Positions 8,813-26,664 are shown, counted from the stretch's first letter. The stretch: 64,000 nt of DNA from Patescibacteria group bacterium (GCA_038064195.1 JBBTTO010000002.1:539722-603721); one strand, 5' to 3'. The notes: generated by a model from the sequence alone, not told the origin. Program-made: numbers and translations.

Positions 8813-8839
8813 TACCTGAACATAAAGAAGAAAGCTTAG

Positions 8840-9714: not shown

Positions 9715-9742
9715 ATCCCTGCATTCCTCAGGCAGAGAAATT
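9715..9742 (+). repeat. Copy B of the 28-nt ftsZ-tail core (exact repeat of 7939-7966)
   Basis: 28/28 identity with copy A. The upstream context in-frame encodes [14 protein letters not shown]-stop. Confidence 0.9.
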
Positions 9743-10016: not shown

Positions 10017-10228
10017 AATATTTCCTGAAAGAAGAATCGGGTTAATGCATCATATCGTTTTCTAATTTCAGGATCAAGAATCTCATTTCCAGCGTTATTA
10101 TCTGTGGGTCTGATGTTAATAAAGGAATTGAAGTCAATATCTATTACTGTTTTGATGTACGAATCGAACTGTTCTTTTAGATTTTCAATTTCTTTTTTTG
10201 AATAAGGTTCAGCTTTAGTAATAATCAC
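10013..10228 (-). CDS. Hypothetical small protein (71 aa)
   Basis: ORF only, coupled to the 91-aa ORF. Divergent from the 10384 gene. Confidence 0.35.
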   Translation of the reverse strand: MIITKAEPYSKKEIENLKEQFDSYIKTVIDIDFNSFINIRPTDNNAGNEILDPEIRKRYDALTRFFFQEIL

Positions 10229-10337
10229 TCAGATAGTTTAGCATATTATCCTCGTAATTTTAAAAATGATTATGAGTAAAGTACTCTACCACAAATTCAA
10301 TCCTGCGCGACATGGATGAGCTAATAACGTTGAGTTA

Positions 10338-10366
10338 TTGAATTATTACCCCAGCCACTATATAAT
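10338..10366 (+). promoter_or_regulatory. Candidate promoter (TTGAAT - 17 nt - TATAAT)
   Basis: Consensus-like hexamers 18 nt before the ATG at 10384. Confidence 0.35.
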
Positions 10367-10383
10367 TGCCGAAAAGAACATAT

Positions 10384-11157: not shown

Positions 11158-11310
11158 GTTCTGATCTTAATACCTCTTGTCATCCTTTTTCAAAGAGCAC
11201 AAAACTTGTTGACTTTGCTTCTTGTTATTGTTACATTCAAGATGTCATAAGATGACAAAGAAATGCCATAAGAAATTTACGGTATTTCTTAAGGGCATGA
11301 AGCTAAAAAG

Positions 11311-11340
11311 CGGGCTCGCTAAGCAGGCGGCCCGTGTTTT
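11311..11340 (+). terminator. Weak rho-independent terminator candidate (CGGGC - 14-nt loop - GCCCG followed by TGTTTT)
   Basis: Hairpin plus T-run read from the sequence. Confidence 0.25.
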
Positions 11341-11365
11341 AAGACAAAGGAATTAAATCTTCTCC

Positions 11366-11394
11366 TTGTTCCCTCATTATCTTTTCAATATAAT
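11366..11394 (+). promoter_or_regulatory. Candidate promoter (TTGTTC - 17 nt - TATAAT). The ATG at 11402 is 7 nt after the -10, so the transcript would be leaderless.
   Basis: Hexamers read directly. Confidence 0.3.
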
Positions 11395-11401
11395 CCAACT
11401 C

Positions 11402-12334
11402 ATGCGTGAGAGAGATGGAAATGGTGTGTCCAGACGGGCAATTCTTGGCGCTGCTCTTGATAAAACAATTTCTCAAGACCCCCTTATCGGAAGAGCCGCG
11501 GATATACTTGCGCCTGAGACCAGACCTCAAGTTCAAAGACTCCGCGAGTTGCAAGAAGGTGTAGAGAATATCCCAACACAGATAATTGCTTCAGCTATAG
11601 GAGATGTTATTAAACTTTATCCGATAGTTTATCAAGTCGATAGTTTGGGGCCAGGTATGAACTATGTCATTGGCGCGGTTCTTCTTCCCTTAGGCTCTGT
11701 AGATGTAGAATTGCAAAATATTTATTGGCACGGAATAATTTACAGCGGTATTGAAAAATCTTCAGTCCATTTCAATCCAGATTCACAGAGTCTTGCAGAA
11801 GTACATATAAATTTTGATGGAAGTGGTGAGGATACAGGTATGTCAAATTATGGAGCAGCTGAGGATTTTAATCCTTTAATACAAATGAGCAGAGAAGAGT
11901 CTGATCTCTATGGTGAGGAGCTTGATAACCAAGGATTTCTGAACTTTGACCAGAGTATTATTTTAGAAGCTATTTATCAAGCAGTCGTCTATGGCGAGAG
12001 AAGTACCTATTGGCAAGATACTGTTGTGCCGATGCTCAGGATGGATGAATTAACCGCATTTAATAGGGCATGGCACGAGGGGTTATTGCGCTCGCGTAAT
12101 ATTGATCCCGAGTTATTTGAAGTTGTTAGTCGGCAGCTACCTATAAGAGAAAGTATGGAGCTTATTAAATCTGGAGGTAGAATAAAAAGATTGGATGCCA
12201 TGAGATATCTGGGTCGTGAAGCAACAAGGCGAGCTCGGGATTTGCTTGTGCCAAGGAATGAAGCTGGAGATTCACTGAGGCAGCTTAATGGTAGAATCAT
12301 TTTTAATGAAACTGATTTTGAAATTGATGAGTAG
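11402..12334 (+). CDS. Hypothetical protein (310 aa from the ATG at 11402)
   Basis: ORF with higher GC than surroundings. No recognisable domain. Confidence 0.5.
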   Translation: MRERDGNGVSRRAILGAALDKTISQDPLIGRAADILAPETRPQVQRLRELQEGVENIPTQIIASAIGDVIKLYPIVYQVDSLGPGMNYVIGAVLLPLGSVDVELQNIYWHGIIYSGIEKSSVHFNPDSQSLAEVHINFDGSGEDTGMSNYGAAEDFNPLIQMSREESDLYGEELDNQGFLNFDQSIILEAIYQAVVYGERSTYWQDTVVPMLRMDELTAFNRAWHEGLLRSRNIDPELFEVVSRQLPIRESMELIKSGGRIKRLDAMRYLGREATRRARDLLVPRNEAGDSLRQLNGRIIFNETDFEIDE

Positions 12335-12400
12335 TTTTTTTATATACTATCGCGTATTTCTACGGCAGAGGAACTAGCTTCAGATTAATCCCGGCAATTA

Positions 12401-13426
12401 CTATTTTGTAAATAGGAGCTGTAAGAATTCTTTATATCCTCTTTTAAATCTTCTTCGCGTCGCTACTTCAAGCATAAGTTCAATCATTGCTACAAATAAC
12501 AACCAGTAAACAAAAATAGCTATTTTCTGACTGATATATATATTACCAGATATATACGCTGCAAAGGACAAAAATATTAATACACCTGATACTAAAAAAG
12601 TTACCTCACTTCGTAAACGATAGATTAAAATACCCATCATCCAAATTATTCCAAATATACGGAAATCCTGCAGCACAAGCGAATTAAATTCAGGTGAAAA
12701 CGTCATAAAGATAATAAGAAGTGAAAGATAAAAATAATTTACTTTGGCACCGAGATTTTTATTAAACAGAGCGAAAAATACATAAAAAATGAAAGGAGTG
12801 AGATGAAGTAATTGTTGAGCTGAATCTGCTACATTTGAAGAGGGTTTTGTTGTTTTTCTTTCAATAAAATTAACTGTATCACCAATATTTAGTAGGGCAT
12901 ATTTTATGGAGTATTTGTATTTAGTGACAAAAATTTGTTCATGTGGAGAAACATAGATTGCATCATCCTTTTTACCCAGCGTTGATTCGATCTGAAAATC
13001 ATACGTTTTCCCTTTTGAGTTGACAATTACCGGAAAGCCGAAGGTAAAAAGTTGATTATCCTGGAATTGGTCAACTTTATAATTTGCTTGATAATACCAG
13101 TCTCTTTCACCTTTTTCTTTTATCTTAAAAATAAGGATGTCATTACCTGCTCGTTTATAAGTGCCAAACCTTATCGCGAGGATTCCCAAATTGTTTGAGT
13201 GTGCGACGAACTCTCCGGTTATTATTTCCCCTTTCATAAGAGGTGTTTTAATCGGAGCAATTATATCTTTTTGAGTTTTTGGGTAAGCAATTATTGAAAC
13301 TGGCTCGCTTGTATCGAAGTTACGAAAAAAATAAAGAAAAAAACCAAATAGGAGAAGAGCACAAGGAATAATGAGCCATTTTAAGAGCAGATAAAAGAAA
13401 TGATGTGTTTTCATAACAAGTAACAA
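12401..13426 (-). CDS. Hypothetical integral membrane protein
   Basis: Multiple hydrophobic segments. No motif recognised. Confidence 0.45.
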   Translation of the reverse strand: MLLVMKTHHFFYLLLKWLIIPCALLLFGFFLYFFRNFDTSEPVSIIAYPKTQKDIIAPIKTPLMKGEIITGEFVAHSNNLGILAIRFGTYKRAGNDILIFKIKEKGERDWYYQANYKVDQFQDNQLFTFGFPVIVNSKGKTYDFQIESTLGKKDDAIYVSPHEQIFVTKYKYSIKYALLNIGDTVNFIERKTTKPSSNVADSAQQLLHLTPFIFYVFFALFNKNLGAKVNYFYLSLLIIFMTFSPEFNSLVLQDFRIFGIIWMMGILIYRLRSEVTFLVSGVLIFLSFAAYISGNIYISQKIAIFVYWLLFVAMIELMLEVATRRRFKRGYKEFLQLLFTK

Positions 13427-13469
13427 TTATTCTAATCTAAATCGGTAAAATGATAAAATATCATTTTTC

Positions 13470-15014
13470 TTGTTTGCTGGGCTTTGGCATTATGTTACTA
13501 TGTTATTATGCTACCATAATGCCATAAAAATGTTTATCAACTTTCTTAAGAAAAATTTTCATATTCTTTTACTTCTCACTATCCTTTCCAGTATATTCAG
13601 AATTTTCTTTATGGACAACATTCAGTTCGCGGCTGATCAATCTTTCAGTTTTTGGACTGTATATTCCTTAGTTGTTAATCACCAGGTTCCATTTATTGGA
13701 ATGATGTCAAGTGCTGGATACTATAATTTCCCGTTATTTGTCTATTTTTTGTCCTTTCTTTCTCTTATATACACTGAGATACGATTCTTAACTTTTGAGA
13801 TCGCTCTGTTGAATGTTCTAGCTGTCCTGGGCTTCTATTATTTTGCCAGAAAATTTTATTCTCAGTTTGTGGCAGTTTCATCGTCATTATTGCTCTCCCT
13901 TGCGCCGTGGCCTATTCTTTTTTCACGTGTTATTTGGCAACAGGATGTCATTATAGTATTTCTTCTTCCTTTTCTCTATTTTCTCCATCGCCTCATCTAT
14001 CTTAAGGACAAAAATTCTTCCTTTGGCTTATTTCTTTTCGGAACACTACTTATGCAAATTCACACTTCGGGTATATTCTTTGTCGTGATAACCGCAGTCT
14101 ACGCTTACTCCCAAAAAGTTTCGATCAAAAAAATACATGCGATTTTAGGAACTGTTCTTGGACTCATACCGGCTCTTCCTTACTTCAGATATCAATTTTT
14201 CTCAGGTATCCTTTGTGCTGATTGCTCCCGCTTAGCCCATACCCGTTCAAATACATTTACCCTTGATATATTTAATTTTTTACGACCCTTAGAACTGTTA
14301 ACAACTTCTAACTTTGATTTCCAGCTAGGGAAAAGTTATCAGGAGTTTGTTAACTCCAGTTTTTTGGTAACCCCCATACAAATTGTTACGTTATTTAGTA
14401 GCATTTTGGTACTCATTGGTATCTATGTTGTTCTTAAGAAAAAGAGAAAGTATAACTTGTTAGCAGTCTACGTCATATTTTTACCAATTTTATATTTTTT
14501 TACTGGGAACGTTGCCTATATGCATTACTACGCTGTTATTGTTCCAATTGTGGCCTTACTTGCCGGTCTCGGGTTCCAGTATTTGCTGCAGCTAACCAAA
14601 AACAAAAGAATACGGAGATCTCTTTACGTTCTGTTTTCACTTGTTTTGATAAGTTTTTTTCTTTTTGAAGTTCTGTTTAATTCATTTCTCTCGACCAAAA
14701 AGATAGTGTTAGGAGATTATGCTCGTATCTGGGAAGTCGGAGAAAATATAATGAATCGCCGGCTACAACCGTATAGGCATGAACCTTATTATACAGAGTT
14801 AAAATACCTTTCATCTATTTATATCTATAGTACTCTGTTTCATTTAGTAGCAGGAGATTATTTAGTAACAAAAAACAATGTAAAAGGAGCCATCTTTGAA
14901 TATTCACAGTACTTAGATGGTACACCTGACATACCAGGTACACCTGGCGATATTCAAGTAAGACAAAAACTGGAAAACCTTAAAGGCTTACTGCAAAATG
15001 AAAAGCAGAAGTAA
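13470..15014 (+). CDS. Polytopic membrane protein, possible GT-C-type (ArnT/PMT-like) glycosyltransferase. Start may be at 13530.
   Basis: At least 10 predicted TM segments and a composition similar to the GT39/83-like proteins elsewhere in this window. Confidence 0.35.
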   Translation: MFAGLWHYVTMLLCYHNAIKMFINFLKKNFHILLLLTILSSIFRIFFMDNIQFAADQSFSFWTVYSLVVNHQVPFIGMMSSAGYYNFPLFVYFLSFLSLIYTEIRFLTFEIALLNVLAVLGFYYFARKFYSQFVAVSSSLLLSLAPWPILFSRVIWQQDVIIVFLLPFLYFLHRLIYLKDKNSSFGLFLFGTLLMQIHTSGIFFVVITAVYAYSQKVSIKKIHAILGTVLGLIPALPYFRYQFFSGILCADCSRLAHTRSNTFTLDIFNFLRPLELLTTSNFDFQLGKSYQEFVNSSFLVTPIQIVTLFSSILVLIGIYVVLKKKRKYNLLAVYVIFLPILYFFTGNVAYMHYYAVIVPIVALLAGLGFQYLLQLTKNKRIRRSLYVLFSLVLISFFLFEVLFNSFLSTKKIVLGDYARIWEVGENIMNRRLQPYRHEPYYTELKYLSSIYIYSTLFHLVAGDYLVTKNNVKGAIFEYSQYLDGTPDIPGTPGDIQVRQKLENLKGLLQNEKQK

Positions 15015-15067
15015 CTATTACTAAATCTGCTGGACCTCTGAAATCCCTAAAGTCGTATAATACGTAA

Positions 15068-17383
15068 GTGTACATGAATTTCTTAAGATTTCTCGGAATA
15101 TTTTCTTGTTGCCTCTTACTCGTTAGTTTTATAATCTACCTTTTCCCTAAATTTAACAATATAGCCACTTTTTCAGCAGCTATCCAGTCTGCACATAACT
15201 CAGGTTCCGTCAAATTATTTCCCATTGAGTCATTTGTTTATTTCTTGATGTTAAGCGGGGACTGGCTTTTTGCAAGAATAGATAACCTCATTCCGTTCTT
15301 TCCATCGTTTATCCGAGTTGTCTGGTGGAATACTCAGGTAATTTCTTTCGTTTCGTTAATACCGGTGATCGGATTATTTGCCTTCGGGATCTTGAGAAAA
15401 CCCAAAGTTTCACTATTTCTTTTCTGTCTCTTTTTTCTCTGGCTACTTTCTCCCGGCAAATTGATGACCAATAGCTGGAATTCCTATGTTATTACCCATA
15501 GATTTGACATCAAATTTCCCTGGTCAGAAAGATATATTTGGATGAATGACGGCAATGATCATAACAATGAGTATGTACAGTACAACTATTCCTGGCTTCA
15601 GAAAAATAGAATACAAAAGTCAGAGATTACTATTTCTTGCCTCGGACATTATCGTCTCTCAGTCAATAATAAGCGAGTTTATCATGGTCCAGCATTTGCT
15701 GTTTTACCGAAAGTCTATACTGATACGCTGAATATCGCTCCATTTATACATCTAGGGGAGAATGAGATCGAAATTGTCTGTCTTCATATTGATGGTATAA
15801 ATCATGAATATCCTGCTTATCTTACAAGCGGTCTTTTGGTCGGAGGTCAAATTCAGGATGGGATTTTGGCTCATAATTTGGCTGACAATCGGCTGTGGAA
15901 GCACACCATTACGCAAACAGTCAAACCTGTAGAGCGGATATTTGATGCTGGGTATAAAGAGGCATATGACCTTACCAAGTCAGAAGTATTTTCTCATATT
16001 CCTTATAAAATCGAACCAAAATATATAATTCTTCCTCGTCCAATACCTCTTTTGAACTATCAGTTTGCTAAGTTAAATGAGATAGCCCCAGGTATCTATG
16101 ATTTAGGTACTTTCTCAACCGGTTATTTACGTATACAGTCAAAGCAAATCAAACCGTGTAGCGAAAATATTATATACGGAGTAAGTCTCGATCAGACCGG
16201 CTTTCCTCTGATCTATATGGGACAAAAAGATTCGTTAGTTTTTCCGGCAAAAAGTATAGACTGGGAACAAATGTCACGTCGATCGGGAAGGTATATCGGA
16301 TTTAAAGGTAATTGTGATATGAATAAAATGAAGGTTTCCTTCACACGGGTTTTAAATAACTTATCTCTCCCCAATGCTCCGAAAAGTTTAACAGCCGAGG
16401 ACAAATCAATTTTTGAGATCAGTCTTAATTCTCTGCGAAATAATGTTCAGGATCATATCGAAGATTCTGTTGATCGGGAGAGAGCGACTTATTTGGGGGA
16501 CGCTCTTGCCGTCTCACGCTGTCTTCTTGTTGAAAGCGGCAATGAGGATATGGTCAAACAAACGATTTTACAATTTGCGGAGAGTCAAAAGAGCAATGGT
16601 TCTTTCCCGTCAATGGCTCCCTCAGGCCTTGATCAGTTCATACCATCGTACTCACTCCAGTGGTCTGAGCTTTTGGATTTGTATATGGTTAAAACCAATG
16701 ATAAGCAGTTTGCTAAGGCAATGTGGCCCCATCTTCAAAAATTGGCAGGTTGGGCTAAAGACAATACTTCTCCGGAGGGGTTTTTTACAAACATTCATCA
16801 TGAAAAAAACTGGTGGAATTTTTTTGACTGGACACCCACCTCGACATCACTTGCGTATCAAACCCAAAATCAGTTGTTGTACCTGCGCACGCTGGAAATT
16901 ACAGCGGAAGTAACAAAAACACTTGGTAGGGATTCAGATCAATATCAAAAACAAGCACTAACACTTAAGAAAAATCTTTTGGTCTATGCCTTTGACTCAA
17001 ATAAAAAAGTGTTTTTTGATAGTTTTGATTTGACAAAGAGAGATGGAATTAGCTTGGTAACCAACGCTCTGGCAGGATCATTGGGAATTTTTCCAACCAG
17101 TCTGGCCAATGATTCAGCAATCGAGTATTTTAAGGATGACTACACAACGCAAAGTCCATATTCCGAATCTTGGGTAGTAGACTGGATGATCCGTTCCGGT
17201 AAAAAAGATTTGGCTTTACATACAATACGTGACTACTGGGGAGGTATGGTCAGAGACGGAGCCACAAATGTTTACGAGGTTTATAAGCCCGGGGTACTGA
17301 GGCCTGACGAGCTCAACCAAAGCTATTCTCATGCCTGGGGCTGTGGCCCTGTATATCAATATAAAAAGATAGTTACGGAGTAA
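15068..17383 (+). CDS. Membrane-anchored six-hairpin glycosidase-like protein (GH78 alpha-L-rhamnosidase-like C-terminal domain)
   Basis: N-terminal TM segments. The C-terminal region has DRERATYLGDA, which resembles the RDER.GW.GD motif of GH78, and W/F-rich (alpha/alpha)6-type sequence. Confidence 0.35.
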   Translation: MYMNFLRFLGIFSCCLLLVSFIIYLFPKFNNIATFSAAIQSAHNSGSVKLFPIESFVYFLMLSGDWLFARIDNLIPFFPSFIRVVWWNTQVISFVSLIPVIGLFAFGILRKPKVSLFLFCLFFLWLLSPGKLMTNSWNSYVITHRFDIKFPWSERYIWMNDGNDHNNEYVQYNYSWLQKNRIQKSEITISCLGHYRLSVNNKRVYHGPAFAVLPKVYTDTLNIAPFIHLGENEIEIVCLHIDGINHEYPAYLTSGLLVGGQIQDGILAHNLADNRLWKHTITQTVKPVERIFDAGYKEAYDLTKSEVFSHIPYKIEPKYIILPRPIPLLNYQFAKLNEIAPGIYDLGTFSTGYLRIQSKQIKPCSENIIYGVSLDQTGFPLIYMGQKDSLVFPAKSIDWEQMSRRSGRYIGFKGNCDMNKMKVSFTRVLNNLSLPNAPKSLTAEDKSIFEISLNSLRNNVQDHIEDSVDRERATYLGDALAVSRCLLVESGNEDMVKQTILQFAESQKSNGSFPSMAPSGLDQFIPSYSLQWSELLDLYMVKTNDKQFAKAMWPHLQKLAGWAKDNTSPEGFFTNIHHEKNWWNFFDWTPTSTSLAYQTQNQLLYLRTLEITAEVTKTLGRDSDQYQKQALTLKKNLLVYAFDSNKKVFFDSFDLTKRDGISLVTNALAGSLGIFPTSLANDSAIEYFKDDYTTQSPYSESWVVDWMIRSGKKDLALHTIRDYWGGMVRDGATNVYEVYKPGVLRPDELNQSYSHAWGCGPVYQYKKIVTE

Positions 17384-17436: not shown

Positions 17437-18780
17437 ATGAAGAGAATCGCTTTTTACGGTGCTTCCGGTGAGGTTACGGGATCTTCATATTTGGTTACCA
17501 ACGCGAATGATTCCCAATTTCTTATAGATTTTGGTATGTTCCAGGGTCCCAAAGAAGTCGTTGATCTCAACTACAAACCCCTGCCCTTCAAACCCTCAAG
17601 TATTGCTGCTGTTTTTCTGACGCATGCTCATTTAGATCATTGCGGGAGACTGCCCTTACTTGTTTTTAACGGATTCAACGGCAAAATCTACATGACCGCT
17701 CCGACCAGAGCTTTTGTCGAGATCATCCTGAATGATTCCGCCAAAATTGCCATGGAGAGTACGGACTATGCTCCGCTTTATGGTATGGAGGAAGTAGAGA
17801 AAGTCATGCGAATGATTGAGGTAGTCAGTTACGAAAAAGAGTTCTCGGTTGGCAATTCATCAATTATCTACCATGATGCAGGTCATATTCTCGGTTCCGC
17901 AAGCATTGAAATTCATGACCGGGGGGATAATAAGCGGATGGTTTTCAGCGGTGATCTGGGTAACAGCCCCGAAGACATTGTCAGGCCAACAACCTTTATT
18001 GATCAGGCAGATTACGTCGTCATGGAGTCAACGTATGGTGATAAATCCCACCCTAGAGAGGATGTTTCAGTAATTATTAAAGAGGAAATTAACGCCACTG
18101 AAAAAAACAGCGGCGTTCTTCTCATTCCTGCCTTTTCACTTGAGCGGACACAGGAACTTTTGCACCGGATCCATCATTTAAAAAAAGACGGCAGCATTAA
18201 CGCCGATACGCCGGTTTTTCTGGATAGTCCCATGGGTATTCATGCCACAGTCATTTTCAGGGACTTCAAAGAGTTTTATAACGACGAGCTTAGATCACAT
18301 ACCGATGATCCTTTTGATTTTCCGGGACTGGTCATCACTGAAGAGGCTCGGGATAGTAAAGAGATTATTAAAGCCATGGCTCCTAAAGTCATCATTGCCG
18401 GATCGGGAATGCTCTCAGGCGGCCGCATCATGCATCACGCGGTTAATTATTTGAGTGATAAATATACGCGGGTGCTTTTTGTAGGCTATCAGTCAGAAGA
18501 GACGTTGGGGCGAAAAGTCAGTGAGGGGGCTAAGCATATCCAGATTGATCGTCATCAGATCAACGTAAAAGCAACAATTAATTCGATTCAGTCACTTAGT
18601 TCACATGCCGACCAGCCAAAGCTGATTACCTGGATAGGTCATATAAAAGGCGTGCAAAAGCTTTTTCTTACCCATGGAGAAATCACTCAGCGGGAAGTCC
18701 TTGCCCAAAAGATTAAAGATACTCTCCACTCACCAAGCATCATACTTCCGCTCAACGGTCAGGAGGAAGTCTTAGAATAA
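17437..18780 (+). CDS. MBL-fold beta-CASP metallo-hydrolase (RNase J / CPSF-like RNA-metabolising nuclease)
   Basis: HAHLDHCGRLP metallo-beta-lactamase motif plus a beta-CASP-like C-terminal half. Confidence 0.7.
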   Translation: MKRIAFYGASGEVTGSSYLVTNANDSQFLIDFGMFQGPKEVVDLNYKPLPFKPSSIAAVFLTHAHLDHCGRLPLLVFNGFNGKIYMTAPTRAFVEIILNDSAKIAMESTDYAPLYGMEEVEKVMRMIEVVSYEKEFSVGNSSIIYHDAGHILGSASIEIHDRGDNKRMVFSGDLGNSPEDIVRPTTFIDQADYVVMESTYGDKSHPREDVSVIIKEEINATEKNSGVLLIPAFSLERTQELLHRIHHLKKDGSINADTPVFLDSPMGIHATVIFRDFKEFYNDELRSHTDDPFDFPGLVITEEARDSKEIIKAMAPKVIIAGSGMLSGGRIMHHAVNYLSDKYTRVLFVGYQSEETLGRKVSEGAKHIQIDRHQINVKATINSIQSLSSHADQPKLITWIGHIKGVQKLFLTHGEITQREVLAQKIKDTLHSPSIILPLNGQEEVLE

Positions 18781-18799
18781 GTTAATAGTAATTATCCTC

Positions 18800-18828
18800 T
18801 TGACAGTGTTATTAGCAAGGAGTATATA
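18800..18828 (+). promoter_or_regulatory. Candidate strong promoter (TTGACA - 17 nt - TATATA) for the RHS/Tc-like operon
   Basis: Consensus -35 at 18800-18805 and -10 at 18823-18828. Confidence 0.4.
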
Positions 18829-18857
18829 GTGAGGGTAAGGTAGAGATCCTACCATAT

Positions 18858-20168
18858 ATGGGTAAGCTAACACACAAAGTTGCCCTGTTATCATTAACAA
18901 TTCTTTTCTTCTTTTCCACCTCGGTTGCTCCTGCGCTGGCTGCAATTACTTACCTTTATGATGCCAACGGTAATCTGACATCCGACGGGAGCAAATGTTA
19001 TGAGTACAATCAGGAAAATCAATTGGTCAAAGTTAAGACGTGTGGCAACAGTCAGACTATCGCCGAGTATGTCTATGATTATCAAGGTCAGCGATTAGTC
19101 AAAAAAGAATACAGTAACGGTACGCTGCAAAAGACCACTTTTTCTCCCGGCGATTCATATGAAACCGTAAAGTTAGTAAGCGGTACGACGCAAAACACTT
19201 CATATTATTTTGCCAATGATGAGCTCATCGCTAAGAAAAATCCCGATGGCTCAAAAAATTATTTCCTCACTGATCACTTAGGCTCTGATTCCGTCCAGAC
19301 AAATCAAACCGGGACATCGGTTGAGTCTACTCAATACGATCCGTGGGGAGAAGTATTGGCTGGAGGAACGAAAAATAAATTCCAGTACACAGGTCAGGAA
19401 AAAGACAGTGAGACAGGGCTCAACTACTACAACGCGCGCTACTACGATCCCCACACCCGCCATTTTACCCAGGCAGATGGGTTAGTGCAGGACATTTATG
19501 ATCCACAACTACTTAACAGATACGCTTACGTACGTAATAATCCGATCAAATATTCAGATCCAAGTGGAAACTTTGTTTTCTTGGCTGTACCTCTAACAAT
19601 GTGGGTGGTAGCAGCATTCTTAGGTGGTTCAGCAGTCTATACTGCAACTCCTCAGGGACAAAAAACAGTTCAGAGTGCACTTAGATCGGCTTATCAAGGA
19701 GCCAATAGTTTAGTATCACAGTCTAGGAACGCTGTATCGAATGTATCAAAAGCAATAGCTAATTCTACAAAAACTGGATCTCAATCTACCAACCCGTCCA
19801 ACTCTTCTCCAAAGAATAACTCACCATATGGGAAGAGTCCAAACTTAGGGCCAATTCAAAAAATAGCACCACTCGCTCCAGCAGCAGAACAGGCAATCGA
19901 AAAAATCCATGGTAACGATCTCAGAAATTCTTTGAATACAATTGGTTACACCTTGAGAGATACAGGTTCCGGGGTCATTCAAAAATTCGGTATAACCTCA
20001 AATCAAGCGAGTAGATATTCCCAAACTTATCTCAATTCAAATAAGCTTGAGCTTGTACAAGAGGTTGAGGGCTCCAGGCATGATGTTTATGTCTGGGAGC
20101 ATGAGCAAATAGGAGAGTACTTAATGAAGAATTTAGAATTACCTTCACTTAATAAGTCATTGCATTAG
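18858..20168 (+). CDS. Secreted short RHS protein: signal peptide, a few YD repeats, RHS repeat-associated core, and a variable C-terminal toxin domain
   Basis: Signal peptide. YD repeats (YLYDANGNLTSDG...). Rhs core ...GLNYYNARYYDPHTRHFTQADGL...NRYAYVRNNPIKYSDPSGN (TIGR03696-type). This is followed by a ~200-aa unrelated C-terminal domain with a hydrophobic helix. Confidence 0.7.
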   Translation: MGKLTHKVALLSLTILFFFSTSVAPALAAITYLYDANGNLTSDGSKCYEYNQENQLVKVKTCGNSQTIAEYVYDYQGQRLVKKEYSNGTLQKTTFSPGDSYETVKLVSGTTQNTSYYFANDELIAKKNPDGSKNYFLTDHLGSDSVQTNQTGTSVESTQYDPWGEVLAGGTKNKFQYTGQEKDSETGLNYYNARYYDPHTRHFTQADGLVQDIYDPQLLNRYAYVRNNPIKYSDPSGNFVFLAVPLTMWVVAAFLGGSAVYTATPQGQKTVQSALRSAYQGANSLVSQSRNAVSNVSKAIANSTKTGSQSTNPSNSSPKNNSPYGKSPNLGPIQKIAPLAPAAEQAIEKIHGNDLRNSLNTIGYTLRDTGSGVIQKFGITSNQASRYSQTYLNSNKLELVQEVEGSRHDVYVWEHEQIGEYLMKNLELPSLNKSLH

Positions 20169-20170
20169 TT

Positions 20171-20581
20171 ATGAGATTTTTTATTACATCAGAAAACCAT
20201 ACAACTATAGCAGATAAGGTGAGATCTGTTCGTAATTCGATTGGACAGAAAATTAGTAAAATGGCTGAAATGAAAGATTATGGACAAAGCGTTAGTTATT
20301 GGGGCCATATCTCAATTGTAAATCCTTCTAGTGTATATGATAAGGGTTTCTATCCTGAAGTTAAAAAATATTCTGGTAGTAAAAAAGAGGTCGAGCTTCG
20401 ATTGAAAATAGACTATGATGATGTCGTTAATGGTGACGAGAAAAAGTTATATACACTTTTTACGGATTCAATTCTTAGAGGAGTTCATATCGCAGAATCT
20501 GAATTAAAAATTGATGACTTTGATTTCAAAAGATTTAGAGCAGATTTAAATGAACTGTTTAGTAAGGAGGGATGGCTATGA
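20171..20581 (+). CDS. Putative cognate immunity protein of the RHS C-terminal toxin
   Basis: Small cytoplasmic ORF starting 3 nt after the toxin gene. It overlaps the next gene by 10 nt. Assigned by position only. Confidence 0.3.
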   Translation: MRFFITSENHTTIADKVRSVRNSIGQKISKMAEMKDYGQSVSYWGHISIVNPSSVYDKGFYPEVKKYSGSKKEVELRLKIDYDDVVNGDEKKLYTLFTDSILRGVHIAESELKIDDFDFKRFRADLNELFSKEGWL

Positions 20582-23500
20582 GAATATCTTTTGGGATCAT
20601 TAAAGTATTAGTTATAGTATTATTATTCGTAATTGCTAGTGTAACTACGACTTCAGCTGCGATGCAGGTGATTCCGCAAAATAATCCCCCGCAACAACCG
20701 AGGGATAAATTCCAGACAGATCTTTTTACCGGATCAGCTACCTATAGCTATCCTATTAACGTGCCAAAGGGCACCAATGATCTTACCCCCGAAGTTAGCT
20801 TTTCATACAACAATCAAGGCGCACACGACACAACAATGCAAAATGGTCTGGGGTGGCAGTTGGAGCGTGATTATATCCAAAGAGATGTTAATTACTCACC
20901 CTGGAATATTACAGATGACAAGTATAAACTGCATTTCAAAGGCCAGACCTATGATCTTGTCTATAACCCAACCGACAGTCTCTTCCATACAAAACAGGAG
21001 TCATTTCTTAAAATTCAACAATTCTTAACCGGCGGACAAGGGACAACCGGTATGTACTGGCAGGTGACTACTCCCGATGGAACGCTCTACCGTTTCGGTT
21101 ATACTACAAACTCAGCTCTTATTTGTGGCGGTCAGACATATGATGGATCCTGGAATGTGGATCAGGTAACTGATACGCATAACAATCATATCTATTTTAG
21201 CTATTTGCAGACTAATGGTGTTGCCTATCTCAGTCAGATCAAATACAACAACGATCAGCTTAGGGAAGTCAACTTTACCTACACTTCCAACTCTTACCAA
21301 AAGCCTGTCTCAGTCCAGGGATGTAGTATTAACGAGACATCAAAATTGTCTGCTATTTCAATCAAAGCAAGCGGAAGTGTCGTCAGAGGCTATGATCTTA
21401 CATATACAAATGCTTCAAATGGTCAGCCGTTGCTCTCCTCAATAACTGAAAAAGGTTCTGACAGCTCCTCTCCCCCCCCAACCACATTTACCTATAACCC
21501 TTCAAGCTCAGGGAATGGTTCAGGTATTGATTTCACAGGTGGAACAAATATAGATGCGGAGCTCAATCATTCAGATGTTGGTCTTTGTGATATGAACGGT
21601 GATGGGTACGTCGATCTTATAAAAACAACAGGAGGAGGGAATTTCAATTGGAATGTTAAACCAGGCAGTGGTACTGCTTTTGCAGCCACCTGGGTAACTA
21701 TGGCCTCAATTCCTGTTCAGTTAGGCGCTTCCAATATGAGACTTACTGATGTGACAGGGGACGGGAAATGTGATGTGGTTCAGACCGTCTATCGGGGAGG
21801 ACCAAATCCTAATTATGACTGGTTTGTCTGGACCAACACATCCGACAAACAGGCCGGGACACTTTCTTTTAGTGGTCAGACCAAATGGGAAGACAATATT
21901 AACTTTGATCAGGCAGCCGGCCTCACTGATACGAGCCTCACGCTTATCGATATGAATGGTGATGGGCTTTCTGATATTGTGCATGTCGGACAAAACAATG
22001 ACTGGGCAGTCTATCTTAACTTACCGGGACAAAATACCTGGAACAATGACAATACTAACTGGGCGCATGGGGTCTCATCTTTCAATAATCCGAGTACCAG
22101 ACTTGCTGATGTGAATGGTGATGGATTCCCTGATGTCATTATCTCAAGTAGTAACGGGGGGCCAAATGAAACCTATGAGGTTCTTCTTAATAGTGGTGGC
22201 TCACTCATGCCTTCTAAGAAATGGATTGATAATGCGAGTGTTGATGCCATTGATTTCAGTAATCACAACGTAGTTATTGCCGATGTCAATGGAGATGGAC
22301 TCCCTGATATTGTGCGGGGCAATGGCTTTAATTCAAGTAATACCAGTGCCCATTGGCAGGTATTACTTAATATGGGAGATCATTTTTCTACAACTATTAC
22401 TACCTGGTTTGATGCGACTATGAATGGGAGTAATGACTTTGACTTAGTTAAAGTTGTCGATCTCAATGGTGATGGTCTGACAGATGTTCTCAATCAGGCT
22501 TTTGGTTCATGGCAGGGTTATATTTCCCAGGGTTTTGCTCCTAATGCTCTTTATGAAATTACCACATCACAAGGGGGGTATATCGCCTTCGATTATACTC
22601 CGTCCACACGGTATTCTAATGGCAGTAATTTATCGTTCCCTCTTTGGCTGGTTAATAGGATGACTGTGCGGAATGGGCTTCCGGCACCGCACAGTACATC
22701 TGATGTTACAAACTATTTCTATGGAAATGGTAAATACAATGTCCAGCAGAGAGAGTTCCGAGGCTTTGGCAGCGTCAATGAAATATTAGCTAGTGGGACT
22801 AAGAGAGCATATAATTTTAATCAAGACGACGCACTGAAAGGAAGGCTTGCGTTGGAGGCTACCAGGGACACTAATGATAACCTCTACGCACGAACCGATT
22901 ATAGCTGGAGTAATTCACAAAGCAATAGTATTTATACTGTCTTGCTACAGTCTCAGCAAAAGTTTACCTATGATGGTGCGGGTGCAAATGCAAAGATCAT
23001 CCAGACTGATTATACGTATGATATCTTCGGGAATATTACCAAAACCTCAGAACTCGGTGATACGAGTTTAACAGGAGATGAGCGCTTCACTTACTCAGAG
23101 TATGCCTCAAATCCGACTCTTTGGCTGGTTAGCACTCCGAAACATACGTATAAAAGAGCAGCCGACGACACGACTAAACTCTCAGAGTCATGGTTTTACT
23201 ATGACGGTCATACAGGTCTTGATGACGCACCGACGAGAGGTGATGTCACGAAAGAAGTTAAATGGCTTAATACAGCCTCCGTAAATCCGACTATTCTTTC
23301 TGAGTATGATGCGTTTGGTAATCTTATTAAAGTAACTGATGCCAATAGTCACATTACGGGGTATCACTATGGTACGAGTGATACCACCTCAACATACCCT
23401 GACAATTCAACCAACGCCAAAAATCAAATAACTTCATACCTGTATGATCTCGGGACTGGCAACCTCCTTTCATCGTCTGATCCGAACGGATTTATCACTT

Positions 23501-26500
23501 CTTATCTGTATGATACTTTCGGCAGACTCAGCAAGGAGATCAAACCATATGATACCGCCAGCTTCCCAACGACTAGTTATCAATATTTTACTGATGGAGT
23601 AGCTCCTGAGGGTATCCTGGTTGCCAAACGTCAGACCAGCGGAGCTGCAGGAACACTTGATACCTATACCTGGGCTGATGGACTCGGAAGGGTTCTTCAG
23701 ACACGTGCACCTGCAGAGAATACTTCTCAGCAGATCGTAGTTGATTCATTCTATGGGCCAAGTAGTAAGGTAATTAAGCAAACAGTGCCTTATTTGACGA
23801 CGCTGAGTGCTGCGTATGCAACGCCTGTGAGTGGAGTAAGGGCGACAACAACGGTCTATGATCCGCTTGATCGGCCGACACTTGTAACCAATCCCAACGG
23901 GACGACTCGCACTACAGCGTATGATCACTGGAAAGTCAGTACAACTGATGAGAATAGTCATGTCGTGAATAAGATTTTCAACGCTTTTGACAAAATAATC
24001 AGAATTGAAGAGATTGTGGCCTCACTCCCACAAGTCACCACGTATGCTTACAATGGGTTAGACAATTTGATCGCGATTACCGATAGCGCGGGTAACAATT
24101 TTTCACTCTCCTATGACTCATTGGGTAGACGAGTTACTCAAGTCGATCCGGATTTGGGTACATGGCGCTATGAATATGATAGTGTCGGAAATCTGACGAA
24201 AAGAACAGATAATCGTAATATAGCGATTGTGAAAAACTATGATGAGTTAGATCGCTTGACTAAAGTAGATTATCCAACTGATACCGATATCACGTATACC
24301 TATGATGGTAATACGAGGATTGGGAGCCTGACATCTGTCATCGATACAGCCGGGACGATCAACTATACTTATGACAACCGTCTCCGCAAATTATCAGAGC
24401 AACGCACGATCGATGGTACGAGCTGGACGACACAATACGCCTACGATGCGCTTGATCGGATAATGAGCCAAACAAATCCGGATGGCGAGGTGGTAGGGTA
24501 TACCTTTAACTCCCAAGGCGAGATAGATAAAGTGACCGGAATTCTCAACAATATCGACTACAGTGCTTTGGGAAAGATTACTAAAAAAGATTTTGCCAAT
24601 GCTTTGTCTACAGTATATTCGTACAACTCCGATGACTTCCGGCTGCATAACATCAAAACAGGTTCGCTGCAGGATCTGACCTATACATACGATAATGTGG
24701 GGAATATAACAAGTATTGCTAATGCAGTAACGAGTAAGACTCAAAATTTCGGTTACGATGATCTGAACAGGTTGCTTACAGCTTCGCTCACCGGAGGCTA
24801 TAATTATGCTTACAGCTACAACGCAATCGGTAATTTACTGACATTCAATAATGGTTCAGCCACTATTAATTACACATATGGCCAGAATGTCGGGGTACAT
24901 GCCCTGACCACCTCTTCCGAAACTGCAGTAGCTACACCGACGCCGACTCCAACGTCCACCCAACCTACGCCCACTCCGACACCATTACCTGGGGGCGGGA
25001 CTGAACTCCTGGGTACGATCTGGACGCTCTCAGGCAATAATAGTGACGCACAGAATGATAAAGTAATTACTTCCAATTCTCTTAACGGGATGACATCGGC
25101 TCAGGTTACGTTCAATTTACATGGCAAGACATTCGGCACAGGAGACGATGAAGCATCAATTATCTTTATTCAAAATGGAGTATGGCTGGCAGCAAATGTC
25201 ACCAAATTCGGTGCTCAAAATGGTTTGGATGGTTTACAAACGGTAACGATCCCCTTGACAAGCTTCCATAAGGTTAATGATGCAAGTGTAACCCTCGATC
25301 CGAGTCAGCCAGTCTCAAATCTGCATGCCAGGTTCTGGAATAGTTTTTCATTCACAGTCGATATTACGAGCGTTAAAGTCACAGCAGTGACGAGTACTCT
25401 TCAGTCTCAGGGTAAACCAATCGTCGCATCGACACAAAAGACGGGATATGAGGCCACAAAAGCCAATGATGGCAATATTGGTTCGTACTGGGAAGGAGTG
25501 GATCATGCCTTTCCAGCTTCGCTTACGGTGGATTTGGGAGCAGTCTATTCAGTAGACAAAGTGGTTATGAAGCTTAACTGGGGCGCGAGAACGGAAAATG
25601 TTACGATTTTAGGGAGCACGGATAACACTACTTTCACCACTATCGTTGGAGCTACTAATTATTCTATAGGCAATGTTCCTGTTACCTTTACGTCGCGAAA
25701 TATACGTTATGTACGGATTATGGTTAATGCCAATAGTGTAACGCCTGCTGGACAAATGGCAGAGTTTGAAGTATGGGGACAAGGTTCAGGTGGACCGACT
25801 CCAACCCCTACAGTTCAGCCAACGCCTACACCAACTGCTACACCCACTCCAACACCAACGCCTGCAAGTGGTTATACTGGTCAGTACTATTCAAATAAAA
25901 CACTCTCTGGTTCACCTACGTTGACGAGAAATGATACTGCCATTAATTTTGACTGGGGATCTGGAAGACCCGATCCATTGCTGCCTGTTGATAACTTTTC
26001 CGTACGTTGGAACAGAACCATTAATTTCACAGCCGGTTCATATAAATTCTCGATGACCGGGGATGATGGAGTAAGACTTAAGATAGACGGAGTCACAGTA
26101 ATCGATAAATGGATTGACCAGGGACCAACTACCTATACAACCACCCAACAGTTAACAGCAGGTAACCATACGATAGTTATGGAGTATTACGAAAGTGGTG
26201 GTGGAGCTGTGGCTAAACTCTCCTATCTGGAAGTTCAGGCGCCGACCCCAACGCCTACGCCCTCTGGTAGTGGCACAGAGATACTCGGAACTATCTGGAC
26301 GCTTATCGGCAATAATGGTGCTGCTGAGAGAGACAAAACACTTGCGGCCAATACCTTAAATGGTAAAACATCCGCACAAATTACCTTTGATCTGCATGGT
26401 GCAACTTTCGGCGGGGGAGATGATGAGGCCTCAATTGTTTTCGTCCAAAGCGGCGATTGGCGGGCAGCCAACGTCACTAAGTTCGGGGCGCAAAACGGCT

Positions 26501-26664
26501 TGAATGGGAGTCAGACAGTGACGATCCCATTGACGAGCTTTCACAAAGTAGGCAATGCGGGTATTACTCTTAATCCTGCGCTGTCAGTTTCCAACCTCCA
26601 TGCCAGGTTCTGGAGGAGCTCTTCATTTACTGTTGATATAACCAGCGTCAAGCTCCTCCCCTAA
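20572..26664 (+). CDS. Giant secreted SpvB/TcB-like YD(RHS)-repeat protein. It has FG-GAP-type beta-propeller repeats and C-terminal PT-linkers, a discoidin-like domain, a PA14 domain and two copies of a ~130-aa lectin-like domain. It has no RHS core or toxin tip.
   Basis: Signal peptide. SpvB N-terminal motif DLFTGSATYSYPINVPKG...LGWQL. Repeated D(V/M/L)NGDG(L/Y)(P/T)D units. Many YD repeats (YTYDIFGNITKT, YDSLGRRVTQ..., and others). PA14-like segment (GYTGQYYSN...NFSVRW...). Discoidin-like segment (ANDGNIGSYWEG). Two ~65%-identical C-terminal modules. Confidence 0.8.
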   Translation: MAMRISFGIIKVLVIVLLFVIASVTTTSAAMQVIPQNNPPQQPRDKFQTDLFTGSATYSYPINVPKGTNDLTPEVSFSYNNQGAHDTTMQNGLGWQLERDYIQRDVNYSPWNITDDKYKLHFKGQTYDLVYNPTDSLFHTKQESFLKIQQFLTGGQGTTGMYWQVTTPDGTLYRFGYTTNSALICGGQTYDGSWNVDQVTDTHNNHIYFSYLQTNGVAYLSQIKYNNDQLREVNFTYTSNSYQKPVSVQGCSINETSKLSAISIKASGSVVRGYDLTYTNASNGQPLLSSITEKGSDSSSPPPTTFTYNPSSSGNGSGIDFTGGTNIDAELNHSDVGLCDMNGDGYVDLIKTTGGGNFNWNVKPGSGTAFAATWVTMASIPVQLGASNMRLTDVTGDGKCDVVQTVYRGGPNPNYDWFVWTNTSDKQAGTLSFSGQTKWEDNINFDQAAGLTDTSLTLIDMNGDGLSDIVHVGQNNDWAVYLNLPGQNTWNNDNTNWAHGVSSFNNPSTRLADVNGDGFPDVIISSSNGGPNETYEVLLNSGGSLMPSKKWIDNASVDAIDFSNHNVVIADVNGDGLPDIVRGNGFNSSNTSAHWQVLLNMGDHFSTTITTWFDATMNGSNDFDLVKVVDLNGDGLTDVLNQAFGSWQGYISQGFAPNALYEITTSQGGYIAFDYTPSTRYSNGSNLSFPLWLVNRMTVRNGLPAPHSTSDVTNYFYGNGKYNVQQREFRGFGSVNEILASGTKRAYNFNQDDALKGRLALEATRDTNDNLYARTDYSWSNSQSNSIYTVLLQSQQKFTYDGAGANAKIIQTDYTYDIFGNITKTSELGDTSLTGDERFTYSEYASNPTLWLVSTPKHTYKRAADDTTKLSESWFYYDGHTGLDDAPTRGDVTKEVKWLNTASVNPTILSEYDAFGNLIKVTDANSHITGYHYGTSDTTSTYPDNSTNAKNQITSYLYDLGTGNLLSSSDPNGFITSYLYDTFGRLSKEIKPYDTASFPTTSYQYFTDGVAPEGILVAKRQTSGAAGTLDTYTWADGLGRVLQTRAPAENTSQQIVVDSFYGPSSKVIKQTVPYLTTLSAAYATPVSGVRATTTVYDPLDRPTLVTNPNGTTRTTAYDHWKVSTTDENSHVVNKIFNAFDKIIRIEEIVASLPQVTTYAYNGLDNLIAITDSAGNNFSLSYDSLGRRVTQVDPDLGTWRYEYDSVGNLTKRTDNRNIAIVKNYDELDRLTKVDYPTDTDITYTYDGNTRIGSLTSVIDTAGTINYTYDNRLRKLSEQRTIDGTSWTTQYAYDALDRIMSQTNPDGEVVGYTFNSQGEIDKVTGILNNIDYSALGKITKKDFANALSTVYSYNSDDFRLHNIKTGSLQDLTYTYDNVGNITSIANAVTSKTQNFGYDDLNRLLTASLTGGYNYAYSYNAIGNLLTFNNGSATINYTYGQNVGVHALTTSSETAVATPTPTPTSTQPTPTPTPLPGGGTELLGTIWTLSGNNSDAQNDKVITSNSLNGMTSAQVTFNLHGKTFGTGDDEASIIFIQNGVWLAANVTKFGAQNGLDGLQTVTIPLTSFHKVNDASVTLDPSQPVSNLHARFWNSFSFTVDITSVKVTAVTSTLQSQGKPIVASTQKTGYEATKANDGNIGSYWEGVDHAFPASLTVDLGAVYSVDKVVMKLNWGARTENVTILGSTDNTTFTTIVGATNYSIGNVPVTFTSRNIRYVRIMVNANSVTPAGQMAEFEVWGQGSGGPTPTPTVQPTPTPTATPTPTPTPASGYTGQYYSNKTLSGSPTLTRNDTAINFDWGSGRPDPLLPVDNFSVRWNRTINFTAGSYKFSMTGDDGVRLKIDGVTVIDKWIDQGPTTYTTTQQLTAGNHTIVMEYYESGGGAVAKLSYLEVQAPTPTPTPSGSGTEILGTIWTLIGNNGAAERDKTLAANTLNGKTSAQITFDLHGATFGGGDDEASIVFVQSGDWRAANVTKFGAQNGLNGSQTVTIPLTSFHKVGNAGITLNPALSVSNLHARFWRSSSFTVDITSVKLLP
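24999..25392 (+). repeat. Internal coding repeat unit 1 (~130-aa module GTELLGTIWTLSGNN...FTVDITSVKV)
   Basis: Paralogous to 26266-26661 at both DNA (~75%) and protein level. Confidence 0.7.
26266..26661 (+). repeat. Internal coding repeat unit 2 (GTEILGTIWTLIGNN...FTVDITSVKL)
   Basis: Paralogous to 24999-25392. Confidence 0.7.

Follow-up and report, generated by a model that had tools for sequence, protein, structure and literature searches.

A probable Sec-exported Rhs-type polymorphic toxin system of a Patescibacteria bacterium, split into two chains and encoded tail first

A 64,000-nucleotide (nt) stretch of DNA from a Patescibacteria (candidate phyla radiation, CPR) bacterium (GCA_038064195.1 JBBTTO010000002.1:539722-603721), here called the window and numbered from its first letter, carries on its plus strand three consecutive open reading frames (ORFs), called at 18858-20168 (ORF1, 436 amino acids, aa), 20171-20581 (ORF2, 136 aa) and 20572-26664 (ORF3, 2030 aa), all three of them present as the initial annotation of this DNA had proposed. 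We propose that this locus is probably a Rhs-type polymorphic toxin system, exported by Sec, made of two chains and encoded tail first: ORF1 would be a small cartridge carrying the tail of a YD-repeat shell, a plug and a toxin, ORF2 its immunity protein, and ORF3 the giant body of the shell. Direct support for this reading comes from domain content, collinearity with single-chain toxins, natural fusions, synteny, a cassette swap and the co-variation of toxin and immunity genes. The initial annotation had already suggested a split, re-wired polymorphic toxin or an adhesion machine, and our results support a split and re-ordered Rhs-type polymorphic toxin.

ORF1 is identical to MEK7605434.1, to which the NCBI gives the name "RHS repeat-associated core domain-containing protein". 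Read by eye, its N-terminus is a Sec-type signal peptide, with MGKLTHK, a hydrophobic run and then APALA, the predicted cut falling before the next A; a hydrophobic N-terminus is found in 76 of the 81 full-length relatives, with the family consensus FFxSxVxPVxAA. A few YD repeats follow (Pfam RHS_repeat, 24 bits) and then, at residues 160-237, the Rhs-associated core (Rhs_assc_core, TIGR03696; E 1.7e-22, 79.7 bits against a cutoff of 32.5), which ends in YSDPSGN, so that the earlier description of a 436-aa protein with signal peptide, YD repeats and a Rhs core closing on DPSGN was confirmed. When solved structures were searched, residues ~29-237 aligned in each Rhs, teneurin and SGS1 shell with its last ~210 residues (946-1151 of 1152 in 8h8a, 1072-1289 in 7q97, 595-689 of 690 in YenC2). 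Since only these last ~210 shell residues are present, we regard ORF1 as closing strands, plug and cargo, and not as a self-sufficient barrel. In Rhs1, the last ~95 residues form an aspartyl-protease plug that closes the barrel, and cleavage comes after the second of two DPLGL-type motifs (PMC8636562). D207 (QADGL) and D234 (DPSGN) of ORF1, invariant in all 33 aligned members of its family, fit this two-motif rule, from which autocleavage may be predicted.

The giant, ORF3, holds the remainder of such an architecture, and its domains are those originally listed (SpvB, FG-GAP, YD shell, Pro/Thr linkers, discoidin, PA14 and two paralogous modules of ~130 aa), borne out by Pfam and by the 73% identity between the two modules. 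Six D-x-[NT]-G-D-G motifs lie at residues 340-630, the last of them just within the adjoining midN region; the YD repeats are also recognised by YD_repeat_2x (E 1.4e-28), and the shell body matches the Rhs shells of type VI secretion systems (T6SS). The propeller is taken to be six-bladed, and the models for SpvB, the FG-GAP repeats and TcdB_toxin_midN all score above their cutoffs. With a limit of E<=0.1, Pfam did not detect TcdB_toxin_midC in ORF3. The giants of L001, L002, L004, L021 and L091, related loci described below, likewise begin with hydrophobic, signal-like N-termini. As for the C-terminus, module A has a beta-sandwich fold of the carbohydrate-binding module (CBM) kind, the PA14 domain resembles that of RsgI3 (6qe7, E 2e-32) and the discoidin domain resembles the chitosan-binding discoidin domains of a Paenibacillus glucanase/chitosanase; the four C-terminal modules therefore look like carbohydrate-binding ones, with glycan binding predicted. 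In some relatives PA14 is not C-terminal and sits between the propeller and TcdB_midN (residues 686-798 of the protein P0123, and the giant of L087), from which it appears that binding modules move around the scaffold. No Rhs core was found in ORF3 by NCBIfam, by a terminal DPxG motif or by phmmer with the core of ORF1, and its sole DP.G, at residue 970, falls inside a YD repeat. A cryptic core or toxin in the giant was ruled out by these searches, and the statement that it has neither was upheld.

That the two proteins are halves of one architecture is seen by joining them. The chain made of ORF3(1-1445) and ORF1(29-436) gave continuous BLASTP alignments, across the junction, with single-chain SpvB-propeller-Rhs toxins of similar total length (query 54-1655 against subject 129-1733 in L072, 45-1654 against 27-1686 in L075, and also L020, L060 and L016); this comparison set is a broad taxonomic panel, obtained from a reference-genome scan with generic Rhs-core patterns, and not a set of CPR relatives. 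Related giants all diverge from ORF3 at the same point, about residue 1440 ("...YTYGQxxGxHALT"), past which they differ from one another and often have duplicated modules (CBM35 in L002, other repeats in L001 and L004, a MopE-type motif in L021). Natural fusions have both parts in one polypeptide. P0123 (2418 aa) consists of a signal peptide, SpvB, propeller and a shell body that runs to ~1568 (...YTYGQTAGPHALT), followed by module A, F5/8C, another module, a Gly/Ser linker, a stretch starting "TYTYDADGNMTSDG..." that is 62% identical to residues 32-244 of ORF1, and finally core and toxin; in P0140, the shell body is followed by two CBM96 domains, the tail and core, and then Ntox44. Across single-chain relatives the tail region is 62-65% identical to that of ORF1. 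The order of parts in these fusions places the sugar-binding modules, as an excursion of the chain, after the body of the shell and before its tail, and the alignments indicate that in the window the chain is cut after this excursion, with the gene for the tail placed upstream.

Two further observations concern these relatives. In P0137 and P0141-P0146, ~610 residues separate the "shell end" from the core. We considered whether this interval is shell that the split system lacks, and rejected it, as the ORF1-like stretch is again only the last ~210 residues in P0123, P0137 and P0140; the interval holds inserted binding modules in P0123 and P0140, has no Pfam match in P0137 and is of similar size in P0141. 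In addition, the signal peptide of P0123 (…FFFLLFFFASFFPVLAA) is closer to the consensus of the small proteins than to the signal peptide of the window's giant. A possible origin of the small gene is therefore a single-chain gene that was duplicated and internally deleted, though the low complexity of signal peptides makes this a weak hint.

The layout is conserved. ORF1 has more than 482 relatives, nearly all of 350-480 aa, in which the core ends at median residue 238; signal peptide and tail are conserved and the tips are very diverse, with HNH, RNase, Tox-REase, GH-E, Ntox and M23 among their Pfam domains and with 102 tips falling into 46 similarity groups. We examined twelve loci (the window, L001, L002, L004, L086, L087, L088, L089, L090, L091, L093 and L094), and the small gene lies ahead of a giant, or of its remnants, in all twelve. 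The giant or its remnants were downstream in every case when we started from eight other small proteins (L001, L002, L004, L088, L089, L090, L093, L094), and a small Rhs-core gene was upstream in every case when we started from three core-less giants (L086, L087, L091). A core is missing from 49 of 120 relatives of the giant, and most of its nearest relatives are among these 49. Loci of the wider panel usually encode a single chain with orphan cassettes behind it; a few have a split form with TcB before TcC. L091 comes from a cultured organism, Geobacter sp. AOG2 (BLJA01000001.1): its small protein (422 aa) has a signal peptide, "IDPSGN", a CHAP domain and a tail 47% identical to that of ORF1, and its gene lies 41 nt upstream of one for a 2319-aa core-less giant ending in glycan-related modules. 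At this locus (5783-15529) the CHAP tip, a cell-wall hydrolase, has no middle gene beside it; a secreted 296-aa ORF precedes the small gene, and the giant is followed by a 173-aa lipoprotein-like ORF that could encode a periplasmic immunity protein. L089 (10001-21353) has no middle (immunity) gene either: a gap of 2 nt separates the small gene, whose product ends in a canonical-looking GIY-YIG domain, from the start of a giant of at least 4053 aa.

The exchange of the cassette is seen at L086, the corresponding chromosomal site of a close relative (beta-CASP, the trio, CsoR, cupredoxin, Cu-ATPase, IleRS), where the giant is 86% identical to ORF3. Its DNA is ~82% identical to that of the window over 17437-19562, up to the codon at the end of the core, and again from 20637, in the giant's signal peptide, to 27099; between 19562 and 20637, which is to say over the toxin tip and the middle gene, no similarity was found. 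As judged from this alignment, only the tip and the immunity gene have been replaced, from the core cleavage site onwards. The cassette lies between two conserved stretches of DNA, and the breakpoints fit a replacement by double crossover.

The tip itself, the last ~95 aa of ORF1, is most likely a nuclease of the GIY-YIG/URI type, an assignment that comes from fold comparison and motif logic, as naming by sequence gave nothing. Its AlphaFold model (pLDDT 81.6) has the layout beta-beta-alpha-alpha-beta-alpha and looks like a GIY-YIG/URI nuclease, with GIY-YIG nucleases as the best structural matches; Foldseek against the PDB put UvrC on top, a match that is not significant alone. Y364, K376-x-G378, R386, E416 and N432 are invariant in seven of seven tip sequences, in the GIY-YIG catalytic order Y...(Y/K)xG...R...E...N, and most of them (Y, KxG, R and N) are >=90% conserved in 46 wider relatives. 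Residues 238-436 of ORF1 have no Pfam match even at E<10; with the tip, no toxin or GIY-YIG model was matched in NCBIfam or Pfam (E<10), a profile search of the PDB gave nothing significant (best E 0.64), and a Pfam scan of the 46 tip carriers gave no match to toxin or GIY-YIG models. Of these 46 sampled carriers, 16 have RHS repeats and 4 PT-HINT. A search of 1.84 billion proteins gave 230 cluster representatives with the tip, which stands at the extreme C-terminus in nearly all matches listed, with carriers of 56-3125 aa. The Tox-URI2 and Tox-URI1 tips are the nearest known counterparts: they share with ours a Y, KxG, E signature (given as "Y, KxG, [EQ]" for Tox-URI2, which the tip residues match), the predicted fold, an Imm44 partner and the position at the C-terminus of Rhs and PT-HINT proteins. 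Unlike them, the window's tip is seen by no Pfam model, has an extra invariant HGN motif before the first strand, and is a nuclease by prediction only. The toxin domain had initially been called novel; its fold is not new, and what stands is that no Pfam model recognises it.

ORF2, or MEK7605435.1 ("Imm44 family immunity protein" in the NCBI), is a full-length Imm44 protein (PF15571, E 2.7e-15, 57.2 bits against a cutoff of 25, profile positions 1-122 of 126) and has no signal peptide. Imm44 is listed as a partner of Tox-URI1/Tox-URI2 toxins (PMC3482391). The same tip adjoins Imm44 in three of three loci (the window, L093 and L094), and at loci with other tips the middle gene is DUF7674, Imm33-like, an unannotated ORF or absent. 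The Pfam match and this pairing support the idea that the 136-aa gene encodes immunity, and co-occurrence predicts that ORF2 is the cognate protein that neutralises the tip. The Imm44 protein of L093 is of double length (268 aa), unlike that of the window, and an extra RraB-like ORF of 123-127 aa, absent in the window, lies between Imm44 and the giant in L093 (7921-8304) and L094 (2714-3085).

How might such a system work? The account that follows is inferred in its physical steps: how the chains join, how the toxin is enclosed and autocleaved, what the arms bind, which cell is the target and how it is entered. Both chains would be exported by Sec, and the tail of the cartridge would complete the open shell of the giant by strand complementation, as TcC does for TcB. 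The plug would cut after N238, leaving the hydrophobic segment, linker and nuclease as free cargo within the cocoon, while the sugar-binding arms would hold the complex on a glycan surface, either the wall of the producer or that of a neighbour. The cargo would then pass into a neighbouring cell, where the nuclease would cut nucleic acid, and cytoplasmic Imm44 would protect the producer and its kin. With the toxin/immunity cassette placed between the core-coding DNA and the 5' end of the giant, a double crossover could replace it cleanly, and the tail-first order may be an aid to such replacement. A bolder version holds that the cocoon is finished in trans after secretion, the giant being a reusable glycan-docking launcher that takes interchangeable 210-residue tail-plug-toxin cartridges; that the hydrophobic helix behind the plug, and not a TcA syringe, would carry the nuclease over the neighbour's membrane; that the system would be the main contact weapon of small-genome CPR episymbionts and of some free-living bacteria (Geobacter) against hosts or rivals; and that the tail-first order would have been selected, since it flanks the cassette with two homology arms for clean swapping. 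Taken jointly, these four claims are speculative, and we think it unlikely that all of them hold.

Several points weigh against the two-chain system that we favour: (i) The binding of ORF1 and ORF3 to each other is a prediction. (ii) Because each chain has its own Sec signal peptide, assembly and enclosure of the cargo have to take place after export, and the Rhs cocoon papers that we consulted gave no precedent for this. (iii) A hydrophobic segment like the one behind the core normally halts export by Sec, which would keep the toxin in the producer's cytoplasm. (iv) No TcA-like translocator is encoded in the window, which has no other ORF >1000 aa in its 64 kb. (v) L089 and the Geobacter locus have no middle gene. 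(vi) In L088 (6020-11511) and L090 (11720-16051), both from one sample (ERZ25039550), the giant is fragmented or broken by several insertion sequence (IS) elements while the small gene and its partner are intact; either the cartridge is able to persist alone or these loci are decaying. (vii) Over seven loci, the divergence of the tail and that of the giant's body gave a Pearson coefficient of 0.74, driven by the closest pairs, and a Spearman coefficient of 0.19, which is not significant.

Some of these points would equally be expected if the two proteins were independent products that share ancestry and an operon, ORF1 being a self-sufficient secreted mini-Rhs toxin and the giant a toxin-less surface adhesin. 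Each protein has a signal peptide of its own, the small gene outlives the giant in L088 and L090, co-divergence is not demonstrable, and in L087 a gene on the opposite strand separates the two. Teneurins, moreover, are YD shells that serve adhesion without toxin delivery. Nonetheless, we consider this alternative unlikely: the genes are linked in all twelve loci, across CPR bacteria and Geobacter; all the giants are cut at the same point of the shell, and the small protein begins exactly where that shell should continue; the fusions P0123 and P0140 carry both parts in one chain; and a 210-residue tail with its plug has no obvious role without a shell body.

Less probable still is an anchored toxin, in which the post-core segment is a stop-transfer anchor, the Rhs tail and plug stand outside, docked to the giant, and the linker and nuclease are kept in the producer's cytoplasm, bound to Imm44, until an event triggered by contact. 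The arrested secretion of CdiA offers an analogy. Residues 239-263 of ORF1 have a mean Kyte-Doolittle hydropathy of 2.1 over 19 residues; K269 and R275 come after them, as expected under the positive-inside rule, and the immunity protein has no signal peptide. Among 108 relatives of ORF1, a comparable post-core stretch exceeds 1.6 in 42% and 1.2 in 75%; however, the remaining 25% are below 1.2, many segments being amphipathic or weak, and a membrane anchor is for that reason not family-wide. Furthermore, autocleavage at the end of the core would part the outside portion from the anchored toxin, and the same segment recurs in the fusion proteins, at the end of an exported chain of 2400 aa. Finally, the similarity of ORF1 to SGS1 runs through the segment, which aligns with the transmembrane (TM)-like helices of SGS1, and that protein shows that such helices can be stored inside a cocoon.

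A decayed locus, with an orphan rhs-CT/immunity cassette next to a truncated Rhs giant and no selected function in the arrangement, is hardly credible: although single-chain Rhs genes of the comparison panel commonly have orphan core-toxin fragments behind them, and L088 and L090 are visibly degraded, the small proteins number hundreds, with a conserved signal peptide and uniform length, their genes lie upstream and not downstream of the giant, the ORFs are uninterrupted and coupled, the C-terminus of the giant consists of well-folded modules and is no truncation, and the catalytic aspartates are invariant.

The last alternative, equally far-fetched, is a canonical tripartite Tc (ABC) toxin against eukaryotic cells, with its TcA encoded elsewhere in the genome, and it leads to a comparison with known systems. 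SpvB, propeller and TcdB_midN are hallmark domains of TcB, and TcC subunits from distant loci are reported to be able to load into the BC complex (PMC11067744). TcB-TcC pairs (Photorhabdus TcdB2-TccC3, Yersinia YenB-YenC2) are, like the assembly proposed for the window, a two-chain cocoon, made of one chain with SpvB, propeller, TcdB_midN and YD repeats and of a closing chain; TcC, like ORF1, contributes the end of the shell together with the aspartyl-protease plug and a C-terminal toxin that varies; and one shell can take exchangeable toxin subunits, as we propose for the window. The differences are as follows: (i) The split point is not the same, as TcB and TcC divide at about half of the shell whereas the small chain of the window has only the last ~210 shell/plug residues. 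(ii) With 436 aa, ORF1 is less than half the size of TcC proteins, 97% of which have 851-1050 aa (PMC7861908). (iii) The gene order is reversed, no TcA gene is found in the window (no other ORF there exceeds 1000 aa) and both chains have Sec signal peptides. (iv) An immunity gene lies between the chains, and this cognate gene and the nuclease tip point to a prokaryotic target. (v) The shell subunit ends in carbohydrate-binding modules, and TcdB_midC was not detected. For the lack of a TcA-sized gene, the size of ORF1, the two signal peptides and the immunity gene, the "Tc-toxin" label that the locus had been given is overstated.

The single-chain toxins of TcdB/TcaC type come closer in content. 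These polymorphic toxins have a signal peptide, SpvB, an integrin-like propeller, RHS repeats and a toxin (Zhang et al. 2012, PMC3482391); ORF3 has the signal peptide, SpvB and propeller before its RHS repeats, with the toxin on the other chain. Such proteins (P0123, P0137 and P0140 included) have the same domains in the same order as the joined proteins of the window, with CBM/lectin modules likewise between shell body and tail and with variable tips accompanied by immunity genes. Each is, however, a single polypeptide whose gene has its toxin/immunity cassette 3'-terminal, often with orphan cassettes beyond it, whereas in the window tail, core and toxin form a separate upstream gene with a signal peptide of its own. 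A solved precedent for a Tc-like cocoon with CBM/lectin domains outside and TM-like helices behind the protease site is SGS1 of Aedes aegypti (PDB 8fjp), a Rhs/YD cocoon with a CBM and a lectin domain on its outer surface and with predicted TM helices, after the aspartyl-protease site, stored inside the shell (PMC9935623). Unlike the proteins of the window, SGS1 is a single eukaryotic protein of 3364 aa, with lectin modules inserted in the shell and neither nuclease tip nor immunity gene. The T6SS Rhs effectors (P. laumondii Rhs1, 7q97; P. protegens RhsA) and WapA of Bacillus share with the window a YD shell, a C-terminal plug with two DPxG-type motifs, a variable toxin and a downstream immunity gene, but they are single chains, without a SpvB/propeller gate and without a separate plug and toxin; the T6SS effectors are delivered via PAAR/VgrG. 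WapA is Sec-exported by a monoderm and has wall-binding domains. Of the features of Rhs polymorphic toxins, the window has the YD repeats, a core before the tip, a hypervariable and exchanged tip and an immunity gene directly downstream; it does not have shell, core and toxin on one polypeptide, since ORF1 alone has the core and ORF3 alone has the shell body. The system is set apart from both groups, since Rhs toxins are single-chain and Tc toxins have TcA, a TcC of 851-1050 aa and TcB before TcC. In summary, we place it among the SpvB-type Rhs polymorphic toxins, with a mode of action that would be that of a TcB-TcC cocoon.

The features of the locus are collected in Table 1. ORF1 stops 2 nt before the ATG of ORF2, which bears out the gene coupling first proposed. 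For the giant, the sequence favours ATG 20578 as the more likely start over ATG 20572, because AAGGAGGG sits 6 nt 5' of it and because it overlaps the stop of ORF2 as ATGA. The single consensus promoter at 18800 proposed for all three genes is weak: the -35 box is perfect, but the -10 is imperfect (17 nt spacing for TATATA, 19 nt for TATAGT), the site is absent from the list of a promoter scan of the region, and promoter-like sites there are not above shuffled sequence (17 found, 19.1 expected). A terminator scan of the region did no better than shuffles.

Table 1. Positions of the features of the toxin locus in the window, and of PMT_2 genes at this and related loci
Feature	Position	Strand	Evidence or remark
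Candidate promoter	18800..18830	+	-35 TTGACA 18800-18805; -10 TATATA 18823-18828 or TATAGT 18825-18830; weak evidence
Gene 1, small Rhs "cartridge" protein, 436 aa	18858..20168	+	ORF; exact match MEK7605434.1
Sec-type signal peptide, ORF1 residues 1-28, predicted cut after APALA	18858..18941	+	By eye
Shell tail and Rhs core plug (last YD strands, aspartyl-protease domain), residues 29-238	18942..19571	+	TIGR03696, alignments
Hydrophobic TM-like segment, residues 239-263, directly after the predicted cleavage site	19572..19646	+	Kyte-Doolittle
Ser/Asn/Pro-rich low-complexity linker, residues 264-339	19647..19874	+	Composition; no family match
Toxin tip, residues 340-436, predicted GIY-YIG/URI-fold nuclease	19875..20165	+	Y364, K376-x-G378, R386, E416, N432
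Gene 2, Imm44-family immunity protein, 136 aa, no signal peptide	20171..20581	+	PF15571; MEK7605435.1
Gene 3, giant core-less shell protein	20578..26664	+	2028 aa from ATG 20578; 2030 aa from ATG 20572
Sec-type signal peptide of the giant, about residues 1-30, ...TTTSAA before the cut, M after it	20572..20661	+	Sequence features
SpvB N-terminal domain, residues 53-244	20728..21303	+	PF03534, E 5.5e-10
FG-GAP beta-propeller, about residues 330-617	21559..22422	+	FG-GAP_3, 5 stretches, E 6.2e-19; FG-GAP E 1.5e-14
TcdB_toxin_midN region, residues 618-748	22423..22815	+	PF12256, E 1.1e-20
YD/RHS shell body, about residues 749-1447, end ...YTYGQNVGVHALTT	22816..24912	+	RHS_repeat, 10 stretches, E 8e-38
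Pro/Thr linker 1, residues 1448-1473	24913..24990	+	Sequence
Module A, unannotated, CBM-like beta-sandwich, residues 1474-1603	24991..25380	+	
F5/8 type C (discoidin), residues 1617-1732	25420..25767	+	PF00754 E 5.6e-15; PF22633
PA14 domain, residues 1765-1884	25864..26223	+	PF07691, E 1.1e-19
Module A', paralogue of module A, residues 1898-2030	26263..26661	+	73% identity over 130 aa
PMT_2 genes	Window 13470-15014; L002; L004 8039-9547; L087 403-2040, 4268-5827; L090 6744-8102; L093 1359-2999		

The trio is set among ordinary genes of the chromosome. Before it come a dcw-type division cluster, a rhamnosidase-like gene and a beta-CASP RNase, and after it CsoR, a cupredoxin, a copper ATPase and IleRS. 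Membrane glycosyltransferase genes of the PMT_2 family adjoin the toxin trio in about half of the loci examined, and in L087 one of them lies between the middle gene and the giant; the Pro/Thr linkers of the giant could be O-glycosylated. Elsewhere in the window, the dcw-type cluster (GlmS, MraY, FtsW, MurG, FtsA, FtsZ) occupies positions 1-8000, and a strong negative AT skew at 2-4 kb falls on the membrane proteins MraY and FtsW. Beside this cluster, in a low-GC stretch (0.34 at 8-10 kb against 0.49 at 6-8 kb), a 249-aa ORF (8840-9589) has a MUG113/T5orf172 domain of the GIY-YIG superfamily, and this region may be a mobile or foreign insertion. The sole RNA gene found in the window is tRNA-Val(CAC), at 37851-37925.

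The architecture had been considered novel, and in one respect it may be: in the searchable literature, which leaves most subscription journals outside, neither a Rhs system split tail first nor any Rhs system of CPR bacteria was described, with searches that covered Rhs, Tc and YD systems of Patescibacteria, Saccharibacteria and Microgenomates, an absence that is no proof. It is, on the other hand, not a one-off, as the small-first order in all twelve loci makes clear; the layout is common in public sequence data. In metagenomes, the "RHS repeat-associated" proteins of ~400 aa, of which there are hundreds, and the "YD repeat" giants without a core should be read as pairs.

The clean swap of the cassette at an orthologous site means that the system is actively diversifying, and the presence of the same layout in the cultured Geobacter sp. 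AOG2 makes it testable at the bench. If the chains do assemble, this would be a natural design in which ~210 residues plus cargo are enough to load a protein into a Rhs cocoon, and such a minimal loading module would be relevant to the use of Tc and Rhs cocoons as protein-delivery devices. It would also give a first handle on how SpvB-type Rhs toxins without TcA reach their targets and, if true, would show how monoderm, ultra-small CPR bacteria, for which few weapons are known, attack their neighbours or discriminate among them.

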